IMG/VR virus record: IMGVR_UViG_3300026534_000035 | Coordinates: 16,458-80,457 of that record | Strand: one strand, 5' to 3' | Source of the DNA: a virus | Length of the DNA stretch: 64,000 nt | Shown: in pieces, positions 12,371 through 17,012 of the stretch | Layout of the letters: each line of letters opens with the position of its first letter | Numbering within the stretch: the first letter of the stretch is position 1 | Notes under the pieces: model-generated | Databases searched by the model: none | Seen by the model: the letters and a program-made list of their open reading frames with translations, nothing else | Told to the model about the DNA's origin: nothing | Program-made: the position numbers and the translations under genes

Positions 12371-12472
12371 AACTGATTAGTTTTAGGAATAGGATAAGGA
12401 ATTAATAATAAAAATACTAAGAATAGATTTTTAATGTCAGGTTGGTATTAAATTACATAGGAGGTATTATTG

Positions 12473-13186
12473 ATGGATGAAAAACTTTATGAGGATATTA
12501 AGTCTGTAGTTGCTAAAATTTTTTCAGAAAAAGAAGAATCTGAAAAAGTTGCGCAGACCGAAGAAGCTCTTCGTGAAGCAGCAGATACAATTGCTGATTT
12601 AACTACTACGCTTGAAAAAAGAAATGAGGAATTGAAGGTTTATGAAACTGAAGCCACAGAATTAAAAGAACAAGTTTCTACTTTTGAATCTGAGCTTGAG
12701 GCAGCCCAGGAAGAGAAGAAAGAACTTGAGACTAAAATGGCTGAGGTTGAAGCGTCGCTCGAAGATATTAAGAAAGACAGACTTTCAGAAAAAAGAATGG
12801 CTGAGTTGGAAGAAGCGGGTGTTAAGATCGCTGATGATGAGGCTCAGACAGCTAAAGTCAGAGAAATGTCTGATGAGGAATTTGTTTCATATAAAAGTGA
12901 ATTGGTTTCTATTCGTGAATCTGTTGTGGCCGAATTGGCAAAAAATAAGGAAAGTTCAACAGATGACAACGCAGAAGACTCCGGAAAAACTGCAAGTACA
13001 AAGGCAGCTGATGAGAAAGCCAGTGATGGAGATGATGATGGAGGAGATCCTCCTCCGGCAAACATTGATAAAACAAAAGCAGTTACAGCTGCTTTAAATT
13101 TTGAAGGCCGTCCTTCAGATGATATGATTGCTAAATATGCGGAGTTAGGAAAAGCGTTGGCGGAAGAAATGAAGAAGTCTAAATAA
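12473..13186 (+). CDS. Capsid scaffolding protein
   Basis: Very acidic coiled coil located between protease and capsid genes. Confidence 0.7.
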   Translation: MDEKLYEDIKSVVAKIFSEKEESEKVAQTEEALREAADTIADLTTTLEKRNEELKVYETEATELKEQVSTFESELEAAQEEKKELETKMAEVEASLEDIKKDRLSEKRMAELEEAGVKIADDEAQTAKVREMSDEEFVSYKSELVSIRESVVAELAKNKESSTDDNAEDSGKTASTKAADEKASDGDDDGGDPPPANIDKTKAVTAALNFEGRPSDDMIAKYAELGKALAEEMKKSK

Positions 13187-13221: not shown

Positions 13222-13887
13222 ATGTTTGTACCAAGACATCCTGTTGTTGAAAACCAATTCTGTACTTATGGTGCGCAGACGGGGACCGGATCAGCTGGAG
13301 TAGGCGGTGTTATTTGTTATGCTGGAGCTGCCTTATACCTATCTAATAGTGCTGCTAATCAAGAGGCCATAGTGTACAGGTATGATAGAGTAAGTACCGA
13401 ACCTACAAATGCTGATGAGCGTGTGCCTTTTGGTTTATCTATGCAAAAGGTAAAGACTGATTATCACCAAGTTCATCCTACAATGTATTTTATGCCTGGT
13501 GATTTAGGGTCTAGTGATGTTATCGCTGCTCCTACATATGATGGCGCGGGTAATATTACAGGCACCGCTGAAGCTCCTGTAGGTGTGGCACATCTAGGTA
13601 TTTGGGACACAGTACATTATACTGCAGAGTTTACAGGTACTGCTGGAACAAATGCAGTTGTTTCTGCTGCTATAGCTCCTGGTGCTCTTATGTATGTGGC
13701 TGCAAATGCTGGCGCTAGACTTACTACAAGTAATTCAGCTGCTGGTAGTGATACATATGATGGAAAGCGTCTGCCTCATGTGACCACTGTTGTAGCCAGA
13801 GTGTGTAAAGGTGTTAGTGCTGCTAAAGCTACAGCCAATATCAATAACGTTACGCTTTACCCCATCAGAGTGAAACTGATGGTTTAA
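13222..13887 (+). CDS. Head decoration/capsid cement protein
   Basis: Ala/Gly/Thr-rich beta protein immediately upstream of the major capsid gene. Confidence 0.6.
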   Translation: MFVPRHPVVENQFCTYGAQTGTGSAGVGGVICYAGAALYLSNSAANQEAIVYRYDRVSTEPTNADERVPFGLSMQKVKTDYHQVHPTMYFMPGDLGSSDVIAAPTYDGAGNITGTAEAPVGVAHLGIWDTVHYTAEFTGTAGTNAVVSAAIAPGALMYVAANAGARLTTSNSAAGSDTYDGKRLPHVTTVVARVCKGVSAAKATANINNVTLYPIRVKLMV

Positions 13888-13957
13888 TTTTATAAAAAAA
13901 TGGGATTAAGGCATGTTTTAATGCTTCCCAAATTATTTCAAGGAGGAGTTTGATATT

Positions 13958-16900
13958 ATGGAAAGACAAGAAATGATGGAGCTTTTTAGAGCTACTGCTG
14001 ACATTAATACTAAAGAAGGCATAGCTGCTTATAGGGCTTTTGCTGCTGCCATTACAACTCCTATCCTGCAGAAGGTTGAATTGGAATCTATTATGAGACA
14101 GTTGTTTGCCGTGGAGCGTTTGGGTCCCGGCGCACAGGCTTAATGGTACTCACTGGGGGTATACGGCCTGTTAAAACTTTGCTATATGCTGGAAAATCCT
14201 AAAGCCGTCCTTTACTGATATGGTGATAATAAGGAGGATATATGGACAATCATGCAGGTAACTTATTAAAGTGTTGTAGTACTAATTATTTGGCTGGTTT
14301 GATAGATAGTGATTTTGGAGTTTACATACATAAGTTTTTTCCAAGAGGAAAACTACAGTTAAGACCTACAATTCAGTTTGTTAGTGCTAATAAAGATATA
14401 ATTGAGGTTTTACATCAAGTTTTTAAAAGTGTTAATATAAACCATCATATTGCACATAGAAAAGGCACTGTGAGTAGAGACAAAAAGGAATTGACTATTT
14501 CCAGATTATCTAAATGTAGAGACTTTTCTGAATTGTACAAGGCCAGTTGTGTAGTAAGACGCGGGCAGTTAGAGCTAATTTCTAAATATTGTGCAAACAG
14601 ATTATTTATGGTAGATAATTATGGATGGAAACAAAATAATACTCCATATACTAAATATCAAATGACTTTATATGATGAATTATCTTTTTTAAATAGTAAT
14701 TATAATAAAGATTATGGGTTTAGAAACCGTACTTTATCATGGTTAGCAGGTTTTATAGATGGTGATGGTTCCTTTTGTTTTGTAGTAACTAATAAAAATA
14801 GAATTATCCCTACTTTGGATATTATTACTGGATCTGATACTTGTTTAGCTAATTTGATTGAAATTTTTGATGCCGCGGGCATAAAATATTATATTAGAAA
14901 ATCTCCATCTAAAGCTACTAAAAGAATTAAAACCAATAAAATATATAATATATATATAAGATCCTTTAATTCTTTATTTAAAATATCTAACTTACTAAAA
15001 GATAAATTGATTATAAAGCATCAGCAATGTAAGAATATTATTGATTATATTAATTTATGTAATGAATGTAGATCAATAACATATACTAAGTCTGATATAG
15101 TTTGTAGAAATAAAATATTAAACACTAAATAAGACACCTCAGAGACTAATACGCAAAGCACCTAATGGTGATGATAGAGTCCACTTATTATAGAAATATA
15201 ATAAATTAAGTGGTTTACCCAGTCGCTAAATCATTTGGCGCCCTATATAGTAATATGTAGGTGAAAAAGAGAACTATATGCTGGAAACTCCTGTTAGGCT
15301 TTAAGTACCAAAGTGTAAAAATCTTAAAGATAGGGACAATCAGCAGGGAAGCCTTTTTTATTGGCCCCTCAACGACTATGAAAAGGAACAATTACATGAA
15401 GAAAAATCTTCACACACAAACAAATAGTAAGTACTATAAGCTTTCTTTATTAGCATCCATGGCTTTATGGGATGGTCATATAACTAAAAAAGGAAGATTA
15501 TGTGTTAGACATAGCCAAAAACAACTAGAATACTTACAATGGAAGGCTGATTTATTGTATAATGCTTTTGATAGAAAAGTAAACGTTAATAAGTATGGTG
15601 GTAAATATCCATACTGTGAAATATCTTTTACAAATGACATAACTAAACGTTTAAGAAAGTTATTATATATAGATGACAAAAAAACTATTAGTCAGTCAGC
15701 TTTAAATTTATTAAAAACTTCTGTTGCTTTATTAATAATGTATTTAGATAATGGTTGTTTAGTCTTGCATAAGTTTAAGAATGATAAAACTAAAATTAAA
15801 AGTAGAGAAATATATCTATCTAGCCATTCTTTTGGTTATAGTGGTAACGAAATGTTAAAATGTTGGTTTAAGCGTAACTTTAATATTACCACTAGTTTAA
15901 GAAAAGATAGAGGCCGTACTTACATCGCTTTTAATGCCACTAATGCTAATAAACTTTTAAATTTGTTTGATGCTGTTCCTGACAGTATGGTGTATAAGAT
16001 TGATATGAAATACACTTACCCACGTTCTCCTTCCTTATAGGAAGATGATATAGTCTGAACTCATAGGAAACTATGAGAGGGAAAGTCGAAGAACTTTCCC
16101 CGCCTAGTTTTTATACTAGGTCATAAAAGTAACAGAGTGGAAGATTTCGAGATTCCAGTTTGGGTCCTTCCTGGATTAGGATATGTAGCACAGAATTTTA
16201 TTGAAGGCATTGGAGAAGAGGTGTATGTTCCCACTTTTACAATCGATGCCTCAGCAGATTGGAAATTAACGTATGCACGTGACTCTCGTATTGATATTGC
16301 TCAACGTGCAGCTGCTAGAGTAGCCAAAGACTTGGCTAATTATGAGGAAGAGTGTGGTTGGCGTGTAATTATGCCCGCTGCTACTTCTGCTTTTTCGGGT
16401 AAAGGTTTGTTGGGTTCTCGCCCAGCTCCTATTTATGAAATTAGCAACGCTTCTACAGGTGCTGGTTATTTGTCAAAGGAGCTGATTAATAAAATGATGG
16501 TGGGTTTCAAAAGAATCGGCCGTCAGTTAACTGACATTTATATTTCTCCTGAGGACGCTGCTGATATTCGTGAATGGACTGACACAGATATTGATCCTGT
16601 CACTAGACGTGAGATTTTTCAGGCTTCTGGTATGGGATCTATTTGGAGTGTTAGGCTCCATGAAGTACAGCACTTAGGAGCTGTTGGGTTGTACAATATC
16701 AATGGTCATTCATCTCAGTATGGTAAATTTATTGCTGATAGTGGGGAAAGTTATAACGCTTATACTTTAGATAACCCCAATGTTACCAATGCTGATGGTA
16801 CTATAGCTACTTTGGGCGAAACACAGATTATAGGTTTTGATTTGTCTACAAACGATTCACTAGTCATGCCTATCAGAAAAGAGTATGAAGCTCTTGAAGA

Positions 16901-17012
16901 TCCAACTTTATTGCGTAGTCAAAAACAAGGCTTTTTTGGTTGGGCTGAATTAGGTTTCGCATGTTTGGATAGTAGAATGCTGGGAATTGGTGTTATTGAC
17001 CGTAGTTTATAA
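13958..17012 (+). CDS. Major capsid protein, spliced: join(13958..14140,15213..15227,16140..17012), 356 aa
   Basis: Exons join in frame as ...LGPGAQA-VYPVA-EDFEIPVW.... Strong SD AAGGAGG; HK97-like size and position; ends GFFGWAELGFACLD. Confidence 0.9.
14141..15212 (+). mobile_element. Group I intron 1 in the capsid gene (1072 nt)
   Basis: Exon ends in U. P1 ACAGGCU/GGCCUGU (14165-14171) with U.G. P element TATGCTGGAAA, Q AATCATGCAGG, R TCAGAGACTA, S GATAGAGTCC. P3 CTTTGC/GCAAAG, P9 with GAAA loop, terminal G at 15212. Confidence 0.92.
14242..15132 (+). CDS. Intron-encoded two-motif LAGLIDADG homing endonuclease
   Basis: YLAGLIDSDFG and WLAGFIDGDGSF; SD AAGGAGG. Confidence 0.9.
   Translation: MDNHAGNLLKCCSTNYLAGLIDSDFGVYIHKFFPRGKLQLRPTIQFVSANKDIIEVLHQVFKSVNINHHIAHRKGTVSRDKKELTISRLSKCRDFSELYKASCVVRRGQLELISKYCANRLFMVDNYGWKQNNTPYTKYQMTLYDELSFLNSNYNKDYGFRNRTLSWLAGFIDGDGSFCFVVTNKNRIIPTLDIITGSDTCLANLIEIFDAAGIKYYIRKSPSKATKRIKTNKIYNIYIRSFNSLFKISNLLKDKLIIKHQQCKNIIDYINLCNECRSITYTKSDIVCRNKILNTK
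15228..16139 (+). mobile_element. Group I intron 2 in the capsid gene (912 nt)
   Basis: P1 CGCUAAA/UUUGGCG with U.G; P2 with GUAA loop. P element TATGCTGGAAA, Q AATCAGCAGG, R TCAACGACTA, P3 GAGAAC/GTTCTC, S GATATAGTCT. P9 CTCATAG-GAAA-CTATGAG plus two more hairpins; terminal G at 16139. Confidence 0.92.
15396..16040 (+). CDS. Intron-encoded LAGLIDADG_2 (I-SceI-like) homing endonuclease
   Basis: LASMALWDGHI, HS.KQLEYL.WK and LLIMYLDNG. SD AAGGA before ATG 15396; the track start at 15261 lies in the ribozyme core. Confidence 0.85.
   Translation: MKKNLHTQTNSKYYKLSLLASMALWDGHITKKGRLCVRHSQKQLEYLQWKADLLYNAFDRKVNVNKYGGKYPYCEISFTNDITKRLRKLLYIDDKKTISQSALNLLKTSVALLIMYLDNGCLVLHKFKNDKTKIKSREIYLSSHSFGYSGNEMLKCWFKRNFNITTSLRKDRGRTYIAFNATNANKLLNLFDAVPDSMVYKIDMKYTYPRSPSL

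Follow-up and report, generated by a model that had tools for sequence, protein, structure and literature searches.

The gene at 13958-17012 of the window, the 64-kb stretch of DNA analysed here, is an HK97-fold major capsid gene split by two group I introns. The DNA comes from the metagenome of a hydrothermal vent and belongs to a jumbo phage that has not been cultured; the record spans 80 kb, with an estimated completeness of 29%. The sequence makes it very probable that the gene consists of three exons, the middle one a micro-exon, and of two introns with LAGLIDADG open reading frames (ORFs), both removed by RNA splicing. The features are listed in Table 1.

The capsid gene was recognised by its homologues. 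Among intact homologues, L002 and L003 come closest to exon 1, which shares 93-95% identity with their N-termini; exon 3 has 96% identity to P0003, the closest full-length, uninterrupted homologue. Exon 3 has a weak match to a PHROG major head protein (E 6.5e-4) and a tblastn match to the major head protein (gp27) of phage G (E 2e-7). The AF2 model of P0003 reached a pLDDT of 88. In a Foldseek comparison with the PDB, the top 14 matches of this model were all HK97-fold capsid or GTA proteins, at a probability of 1.0 and E 7e-9 to 5e-8. By the predicted HK97 fold of this full-length homologue, the product is a capsid protein. The gene is preceded by an acidic coiled-coil ORF and followed by a large structural ORF. 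Gene callers produced a truncated protein of 291 aa (P0001, P0002) and a 61-aa orphan; the first-pass annotation of the DNA had anticipated such a truncation by automated annotation.

Table 1. Features of the interrupted capsid gene, with coordinates in the window
Feature	Coordinates	Strand	Description
MCP exon 1	13958..14140	+	61 aa, C-terminus ...LGPGAQA; last base U14140; from ORF list
Intron 1 P1 and P10	14135..14170	+	Pairing check
Group I intron 1	14141..15212	+	1072 nt; capsid site 61.00; first codon TAA; ends with G15212
Intron 1 5' core	14177..14267	+	P3 5' strand 14177-14182; P element/P4 14186-14195; Q element/P4' 14248-14257; P6/P6a 5' strand 14257-14267; from Rfam, pairing, orthologues
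HEG1	14242..15132	+	296 aa; two-motif LAGLIDADG homing endonuclease, looped out of P6a
Intron 1 3' core	15128..15212	+	P6a/P6 3' strand 15128-15138; R element/P7 5' 15139-15148; P3 3' strand GCAAAG 15153-15158; P8 hairpin 15159-15170; S element/P7 3' 15173-15181; P9 hairpin with GAAA loop 15185-15204; omega-G 15212
Micro-exon	15213..15227	+	15 nt, GTTTACCCAGTCGCT, encodes VYPVA; from homologue alignment, independent contigs
Intron 2 5' core	15222..15379	+	P1 15222-15230 with 15234-15242, U15227.G; P2 15242-15261; P3 5' strand GAGAAC 15269-15274; P/P4 15278-15287; P5; Q/P4' 15338-15346; P6 15346-15368; R/P7 5' strand GACUAU 15374-15379; from Rfam alignment, pairing check
Group I intron 2	15228..16139	+	912 nt; capsid site 66.00; ends with G16139
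HEG2	15378..16040	+	LAGLIDADG_2 family; between P7 5' strand and P3 3' strand
Intron 2 3' core	16024..16139	+	P3 3' strand GUUCUC 16024-16029; P8 hairpin 16030-16044; S/P7 3' strand AUAGUC 16050-16055; P9 with GAAA loop 16061-16076; P9.1 16079-16100; P9.2 16103-16120; omega-G 16139
MCP exon 3	16140..17012	+	290 aa and stop; first bases GAAGATTTC

Joining the three exons yields 61+5+290 = 356 aa, the length of most homologues among the 120 exon-3 matches listed. Uninterrupted homologues of this length number in the hundreds and read ...LGPGAQAVYPVAEDFEIPVW... across both joins. The expected alignment of intronless homologues, GAQA-xYPVA-EDF, was found as GAQA-VYPVA-EDF, read through in 7 of 7 full-length homologues. 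Of the 80 best relatives in IMG/VR, 77 have exactly 15 nt of DNA separating the flanks of exons 1 and 3, and VYPVA is nearly invariant across 78 uninterrupted loci. The predicted spliced protein would carry GAQAVYPVAEDF across the joins, a span to be expected among virion peptides.

The positions of the joins were examined by a junction scan in which every alternative split was scored. Two equally good splits per junction were obtained, and no more. Exon 1 ends with ...CAGGCT at 14140, directly followed by TAA. Only one of the two splits places a U immediately ahead of the 5' splice site and closes the intron with G. It is the split of the first-pass annotation, whose coordinates for exons, micro-exon and introns hold to the base. 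Both introns end with G (G15212, G16139), and a G can likewise be placed at the intron end at nearly all other examined capsid-gene junctions in relatives. The micro-exon is the target of both introns: 15213-15219 pairs in P10 of intron 1 and 15222-15227 in P1 of intron 2. With the first 7 nt and the last 6 nt engaged, guide pairing occupies nearly the whole micro-exon.

Two other runs yielded near-identical contigs that cross the micro-exon and include the adjoining ends of both introns, which excludes an assembly chimera. One of them, from another study and another run (X2), covers 15047-15425 with 0 differences; the other, also from another run (X4), covers 15179-15329 with 0 differences. 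A twintron is an intron inserted in another intron, without a coding exon in between. This arrangement was rejected: the 15 nt between the introns code for the conserved VYPVA, which the uninterrupted homologues also have.

Both insertions are group I introns, as judged from sequence motifs and predicted pairing. Both introns contain the P, Q, R and S motifs in the expected order, a combination that the remainder of the 64-kb window lacks. P1, P3, P4, P6, P7, P8 and P9 were located and pairing-checked in both, and the 5' splice site has the U.G wobble in P1 with the internal guide sequence. The U.G P1 helices and P/Q/R/S cores of the first-pass annotation thus stood up to the pairing check. 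The Infernal search that it proposed gave a divided result. Rfam yielded no group I match in the whole window at gathering thresholds and none in 13900-16300 at E up to 10. No full-length match of either intron reaches the RF00028 gathering score of 50 bits, because the ORFs split both cores, with about 890 nt in P6a of intron 1 and 660 nt between P7 and P3' of intron 2. The halves were then searched each as its own stretch, with the ORF left out, in the truncated-hit mode of Infernal, and all four matched RF00028, the 5' halves in its P1-P6 part and the 3' halves in its P7-P9 part. For intron 1, the 5' half (14141-14268) scored 15.5 bits (E 0.05) and the 3' half (15120-15203) 31.5 bits (E 6e-7). 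The values for intron 2 were 34.6 bits (E 1.2e-7; 15218-15392, model positions 1-164) and 26.6 bits (E 2.2e-5; 16030-16077). ORF-less relatives with the common 3' motif have a full-length RF00028 match of 73-98 bits. Homologues, half-matches, pairing and covariation together uphold the earlier proposal that two group I introns interrupt the capsid gene on either side of a 15-nt micro-exon.

The insertion sites are named by the codon.phase numbering of P0003; site 61.00 falls exactly between codons 61 and 62. In P1 of intron 1, the exon end CAGGCU (14135-14140) pairs with the guide GGCCUG (14165-14170) in 6 of 6 positions, including the terminal wobble U14140.G14165. Directly 5' of this guide, GGUAUAC (14158-14164) pairs with the micro-exon to form P10, in 6 of 7 positions. 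The P5 extension contains a Shine-Dalgarno sequence, AAGGAGG. Covariation was read from alignments of 2-4 sequences, without statistics. The site-61 orthologues in L231 and L123 have compensatory changes in P3, P9 and P10. P3 appears as CUUUGC/GCAAAG, UUUCGC/GCGAAA and UCUUGC/GCAAGA, and the P9 stems are wholly different in sequence, all paired and closed by GNRA loops. In L231, the P10 guide shifts with a synonymous change of the 3' exon, from C-G to U-A.

Intron 2 follows the same plan. The exon end GUCGCU and the adjoining intron bases AAA pair with UUUGGCGC in P1, according to the Rfam alignment. L178 carries the orthologue at site 66, with compensatory changes in P1, P2, P3, P8, P9 and P9.2. 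Its P1 guide is changed from GGCGC to GGCCAC, matching the exon change from GUCGCU to GUGGCU.

P7 of intron 1 is short, with four clean pairs only (GACU/AGUC), and the 5' half of this intron matches Rfam weakly. Both would suit a dead capsid gene on the contig of a defective phage, with splicing lost through decay of both introns or at least of intron 1. This is very unlikely. The odd P7 sequence is kept in all three diverged site-61 orthologues, while the other helices stay paired via compensatory changes and the guide sequences follow synonymous exon changes. None of the three exons is disrupted or out of frame, and exon 3 has the high identity to P0003 given above. The same DNA was present in at least two further runs, and the contig had a depth of 14.6 in the likely source run. 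The runs that matched the stretch were DNA runs; a search for RNA runs containing it found none.

Both intron ORFs code for LAGLIDADG proteins, as first proposed from the sequence; their Pfam matches exceed the curated cutoffs. The start of HEG1 overlaps Q and its stop the 3' strand of P6a. HEG1 matches LAGLIDADG_3 with 27.2 bits (cutoff 22.5) and Hom_end with 25.5 bits (cutoff 21.1), and has weak matches in the PDB to single-chain enzymes of the I-OnuI type. Its motifs LAGLIDSD and LAGFIDGD both have the D. Orthologues with 54% identity are located inside the site-61 introns of L231 and L123. HEG2 is 220 aa long from the ATG at 15378, or 214 aa from the ATG at 15396, which has the better Shine-Dalgarno sequence. 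It matches LAGLIDADG_2 with 66.4 bits (cutoff 25); a PDB sequence search gave no match at E up to 1. Motif 1 of HEG2 is LWDG, with the acidic residue present. Motif 2 is LDNG, where 13 of 13 aligned relatives have DDG: an N replaces the D before the G, a residue that is presumably catalytic, as in I-SceI. HEG2 may be crippled by this change. Since HEG2 lacks the acidic residue before the G in motif 2, intron 2 may no longer be mobile. The likely inactivating change also fits a dead capsid gene, but decay of an endonuclease gene leaves the ribozyme unharmed.

LAGLIDADG ORFs dominate both insertions, and the family occurs in inteins too. The insertions might accordingly be free-standing homing endonuclease cassettes or inteins, the capsid being made of separate polypeptides or by protein splicing. 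The likelihood of this is close to nil. An in-frame intein is excluded because exon 1 meets TAA at once, as the first codon of intron 1, and the frame of the micro-exon stops 11 codons into intron 2. A micro-exon of 5 aa is impossible as a separate subunit, and the non-coding flanks of both ORFs are group I core with RF00028 matches.

In the preferred explanation, a very conserved N-terminal stretch of the gene houses two mobile group I introns, independent of each other and separated by 15 nt. The internal guide sequence of each would pair with the end of the upstream exon to form P1, with the U.G at the splice site. Following the group I mechanism, each intron would be removed, up to its terminal G, by two transesterifications initiated by guanosine. 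Only after both splicing events would the three exons form a continuous mRNA for the 356-aa capsid protein. The LAGLIDADG genes in peripheral loops (P6a; P7-P3') could account for the arrival of the introns and their spread among capsid alleles. Self-splicing, its efficiency and order, and the activity of the endonucleases are predicted features.

An addition to two-step splicing, not a replacement, would be an alternative joining: given the similarity of the two cores, intron 1 might at times contribute its 5' splice site, and intron 2 its 3' splice site, to a single join. CTATATGCTGGAAA is common to the P elements of both introns. Such joining is rather unlikely, and so is its product, an in-frame capsid variant with the micro-exon skipped and VYPVA missing. 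The frame would be kept, since 15 nt are 5 codons. The near-invariance of VYPVA in the uninterrupted loci makes it unlikely, therefore, that a variant without it is functional.

The capsid gene is interrupted at many sites across the phage clade to which the window belongs. At least 10 insertion sites were counted, single genes carry up to four or more introns, and further capsid micro-exons measure 20-39 nt. A family of I-OnuI-like LAGLIDADG proteins, 31-57% identical to HEG1, is associated with related ribozymes at the neighbouring sites 58.00, 61.00, 70.67 and 93.67. Orthologous ribozymes contain unrelated endonuclease genes in different loops, and the intron of L075 resembles a chimera of the two introns of the window. 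Searches of viral contigs with each endonuclease protein recovered distant relatives only; the DNA core motifs recovered more. Protein databases hold 86 clusters of short N-terminal capsid fragments of this clade. On a 169-kb JGI contig, the protein fragments P0009 and P0143 resemble a second double interruption between AQA and EDF.

Tentatively, and at somewhat less than even chances, the capsid gene could be a place of intron retargeting in this jumbo-phage clade, which is widespread in the environment. Sites would shift by a few bases as guide sequence and endonuclease specificity both change, and about 15 nt (7 for P10 and 6 for P1) would come near the minimum length of an exon shared between neighbouring group I introns. 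The clade's insertion sites, related endonucleases and intron-less alleles offer a ready series for homing-site evolution, and its endonucleases are a source of new LAGLIDADG specificities. With two guide pairings nearly filling it, the micro-exon offers a compact test case for the non-interference of neighbouring group I introns. If splicing occurs as predicted, each transcript must undergo two ribozyme reactions before the most abundant virion protein can be made; splicing must therefore be efficient and correctly ordered. Short N-terminal fragments and truncated capsid calls also mean that capsid-based taxonomy and counting mishandle such genomes unless introns are modelled.

The first-pass annotation had considered two LAGLIDADG introns in the capsid gene unusual. 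This rarity was overstated, given the published cases and the many insertion sites in the phage's own clade. Capsid-gene introns of phages, including multiple ones, are already published, and the window is another example. In crAss-like phages of the Delta and Zeta groups, group I introns have the capsid gene among their typical targets, and one such gene lies in five fragments (Yutin et al. 2021, PMC7886860). Like the phage of the window, these are uncultured and have capsid introns with endonuclease ORFs and broken annotation. They are gut phages, whereas the window represents a vent or sediment jumbo-phage clade. The crAss-like introns were found by protein domains, and the study contains no 15-nt micro-exon and no guide-sequence analysis (PMC7886860).

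Mycobacteriophage LittleE has a single group I intron in the major capsid gene, with splicing demonstrated by RT-PCR (Pope et al. 2013, PMC3706429). As in the window, the exon finishes with U and the intron with G, and the ORF is LAGLIDADG-like, related to I-CreI. The difference is one intron instead of two, with the ORF on the opposite strand (PMC3706429). A capsid-gene group I intron of lactococcal phage Tuc2009 is mentioned there by citation. LittleE and Tuc2009 are small siphoviruses of Actinobacteria and Firmicutes, in contrast to the jumbo phage of the window.

The DNA of intron 2 points to relatives in Bacillus jumbo phage AR9, with terL annotated as five joined pieces, and in SPbeta-like phages, with a ribonucleotide reductase intron. 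Its core (about 15279-15358, P3-P6) is 80-85% identical at the DNA level to stretches in the interrupted genes of AR9 and SPbeta-like phages, including about 80% identity to a stretch of some 80 bp within the five-piece terL span of AR9. By this comparison of DNA cores, intron 2 and the AR9 and SPbeta-like introns belong to the same phage intron lineage. The multiply interrupted host genes of AR9 and the SPbeta-like phages serve as terminase and in nucleotide metabolism, as opposed to the capsid gene in the window.

Jumbo gut (Jug) phages have about 18 group I introns per genome, and metatranscriptome reads confirm splicing for 37 of 76 introns (PMC12880540). They resemble the phage of the window as jumbo phages with a heavy load of group I introns and homing endonucleases, LAGLIDADG included. 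The Jug introns described there, most of them short and without an ORF, are located in terL, in nrdD and in the gene for DNA polymerase, whereas those of the window interrupt the capsid gene and bear ORFs (PMC12880540).

The capsid gene in the window very probably carries two functional group I introns, both required for capsid expression. The parent IMG/VR record comprises 80 kb, with an estimated completeness of 29%, and likely originates from a hydrothermal-vent metagenome. Four plus-strand ORFs lie within 13958-17012. A protein search yielded 631 relatives of the 290-aa C-terminal part, and a majority of the best 120 have 356 aa, exactly the sum of 61, 5 and 290. The homologues run unbroken as ...LGPGAQA-VYPVA-EDFEIPVW..., the continuity (GAQA-xYPVA-EDF) that the first-pass annotation had set as a check on its double-intron model. 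The uninterrupted reference protein P0003 is 96% identical over exon 3. Of the 80 best IMG/VR loci, 77 have exactly 15 nt of DNA between their matches to exons 1 and 3, and this stretch ranks among the most conserved of the gene. A junction scan scored each alternative split of both junctions. The best protein score, a U at the exon end and a G at the intron end coincide only at the junctions proposed by the first-pass annotation, and the exons were therefore placed there. Homologue lengths and spacing agree. Introns account for 65% of the capsid gene span.

An artefactual origin of the micro-exon is ruled out by near-identical contigs from two sequencing runs other than the source run. The X2 contig, from another study, covers 15047-15425 and the X4 contig 15179-15329; each spans the end of intron 1, the micro-exon and the start of intron 2.

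Features of the interrupted capsid gene, helices of both introns, matches to the Rfam model RF00028 (Intron_gpI) and insertion sites in relatives (P0003 codon.phase numbering; L, IMG/VR loci)
Feature	Position	Strand	Details
61-aa ORF	13958-14143	+	
Exon 1	13958-14140	+	
Intron 1	14141-15212	+	1072 nt
Intron 1 5' half, RF00028	14141-14268		15.5 bits, E 0.05
296-aa ORF (HEG1)	14242-15132	+	LAGLIDADG_3 and Hom_end (Pfam)
Intron 1 3' half, RF00028	15120-15203		31.5 bits, E 6e-7
Micro-exon	15213-15227	+	VYPVA
Intron 2 5' half, RF00028	15218-15392		34.6 bits, E 1.2e-7; model positions 1-164
Intron 2	15228-16139	+	912 nt
HEG2 ORF	15261-16040	+	LAGLIDADG_2 (Pfam, 66 bits); likely starts 15378 or 15396
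Intron 2 3' half, RF00028	16030-16077		26.6 bits, E 2.2e-5
291-aa ORF	16137-17012	+	
Exon 3	16140-17012	+	
Intron 1 P1			CAGGCU/GGCCUG, wobble U14140.G14165
Intron 1 P3			CUUUGC/GCAAAG
Intron 1 P4			one bulge
Intron 1 P6 and P6a			enclose the ORF
Intron 1 P7			GACU/AGUC
Intron 1 P8			4-bp hairpin
Intron 1 P9			8-bp hairpin, GAAA loop
Intron 1 P10			guide GGUAUAC, micro-exon GUUUACC, 6/7 pairs
Intron 2 P1			GUCGCU/AAA (exon/intron) with UUUGGCGC, U15227.G
Intron 2 P2, P4, P5, P6, P8, P9.1, P9.2			all present
Intron 2 P3			GAGAAC/GUUCUC
Intron 2 P7			GACUAU/AUAGUC
Intron 2 P9			GAAA loop
Insertion site	58.00		L075, L191, L199, L345, L380
Insertion site	61.00		window, L231 group, L123, L383, L384
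Insertion site	64.67		L191
Insertion site	66.00		window, L178
Insertion site	70.67		L087 group, L173
Insertion site	80.33		L295
Insertion site	93.67		L118, L123, L173
Insertion site	137.33		L191, L231 group, L301, L115
Insertion site	between 205 and 214		L115
Insertion site	about 210		L295

Sequence evidence for a capsid gene is weak on its own, with matches to a PHROG major head protein (E 6.5e-4) and to the major head protein of Bacillus phage G (tblastn, 2e-7). The assignment is supported by the predicted fold of P0003. Its AlphaFold model (mean pLDDT 88) has HK97-fold capsid proteins of phiXacJX1, HK97, cyanophage A4 and T5 as best PDB matches (probability 1.0). In this model, the insertion sites (residues 61 and 66) directly follow the N-terminal helices and fall within the region of the first short strands. 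Upstream, 12470-13186 encodes a 238-aa acidic coiled-coil protein, scaffold-protein-like in appearance; between it and the capsid gene is a 221-aa ORF (13222-13887) with no family match.

With ORFs of about 890 and 660 nt inside the cores, the intact capsid region gave no Rfam match to RF00028, but all four intron halves matched when run as separate stretches. ORF-less relatives, found via a 21-nt 3'-core motif, matched the full model with 73-98 bits. At least 119 IMG/VR stretches (including loci L211-L289), mostly outside capsid genes, contain the 21-nt 3' tail motif of intron 2, GGTCATAMAAGTAACAGARTG, which marks a very widespread phage intron lineage. After the helices had been located, base pairing was checked; together with the half-matches, it bore out the U.G P1 helices and group I cores claimed for both introns. 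The ORF of intron 2 lies between the P7 5' strand and the P3 3' strand. At the equivalent place, the ORF-less relative L103 has a 37-nt insertion. Introns of subgroup IA have their additional P7.1/P7.2 helices at this position.

Orthologous introns were compared in small alignments, and changes are given as read, without statistics. The introns that L231 and L123 carry at site 61 align with intron 1 and contain endonuclease genes whose products are 54% identical to HEG1. Among these three introns, the P3 strands change together, and nearly all bases of the P9 stems differ while pairing stays perfect below GNRA loops; the unusual P7 sequence does not differ between them. A C-to-U change in the 3' exon is accompanied by a G-to-A change in the P10 guide. 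L178 has, at site 66, an intron that aligns with intron 2 and shows compensated changes in P2, P3, P8, P9 and P9.2. Its exon reads GUGGCU and its guide GGCCAC, versus GUCGCU and GGCGC in the window. Guides that track synonymous exon changes would be expected of working ribozymes. Splicing of both introns is inferred.

Pfam confirmed a LAGLIDADG ORF in each intron. The two motifs of HEG1 are LAGLIDSD and LAGFIDGD, and the protein weakly resembles single-chain I-OnuI-type enzymes. The strong Shine-Dalgarno sequence of HEG1 is located within the P5 extension of intron 1. Related endonucleases at sites 58, 61, 70.67 and 93.67 are 31-57% identical to HEG1. The second motif of HEG2 (about 15837-15851) is YLDNG, versus DDG in all 13 aligned relatives from other contigs. 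The aspartate before the glycine is, as we assume from I-SceI, catalytic. HEG2 may therefore have lost one catalytic acid and be a nickase, inactive or kept for another, maturase-like role; this is a lead only. Run X2 carries G15916A (Arg to His) in the HEG2 ORF. The L178 ORF is 24% identical to HEG2 and lies in the P6 loop, not between P7 and P3'. The site-66 ribozymes are orthologous, but this difference suggests that their ORFs arrived by separate invasions.

When exon 1 served as the protein query, 86 clusters of short N-terminal fragments of the capsid protein were retrieved, which end after PG58, AQA61, VYPV65, VYPVA66, EDFEI71, PVWV75, GLG80, GLGY81 and GEEV94. Base-level sites were taken from the DNA of interrupted capsid genes found via intron motifs. 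Uninterrupted alleles are the majority (77/80 and 84/94 in two best-hit sets). The L191 capsid gene (minus strand, 8882-5405) has three introns (58.00, 64.67, 137.33) and a 20-nt micro-exon; its middle intron has 284 nt and no ORF. At least four introns (61, about 71, about 81, 93.67) interrupt the capsid gene of L123 (IMGVR_UViG_3300034152_000987, minus strand, 4378-1017), with micro-exons of about 30-39 nt. Two of these introns are ORF-less with full-length RF00028 matches; no exon encoding residues 72-81 was located. The single intron of L075:3297-4476 (IMGVR_UViG_3300005613_000027) has 1180 nt and occupies a third site, which precedes that of intron 1 in the window by 9 nt. This intron is intron-1-like in its 5' half and LAGLIDADG ORF and intron-2-like in its 3' half (P7-P9.2 and tail), so that it looks like a recombinant. 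The capsid homologue P0006 (314 aa; L039:4430-4500) lacks about 42 residues in frame (roughly 16-57, N-terminal helices), with no intron there; this could be a genuine deletion or result from misassembly.

The observation of the first-pass annotation was thus confirmed and its interpretation is supported, while the rarity of capsid-gene introns was overstated. Such an intron is described for Tuc2009, and that of LittleE, with a LAGLIDADG-like ORF, is spliced in vivo (PMC3706429). Capsid genes of crAss-like phages are typical targets of introns, and one of them is split into five pieces (PMC7886860). Intron-rich jumbo phages include the Jug phages (PMC12880540) and AR9 with its staphylococcal relatives. 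The core of intron 2 shares about 80% identity with a sequence within the five-piece terL gene of AR9. Since capsid introns and intron-rich jumbo phages are already published, the window capsid gene is a further case of a known interruption. As far as the literature was searched, the 15-nt micro-exon with two guide pairings and the site density of the clade go beyond published cases.
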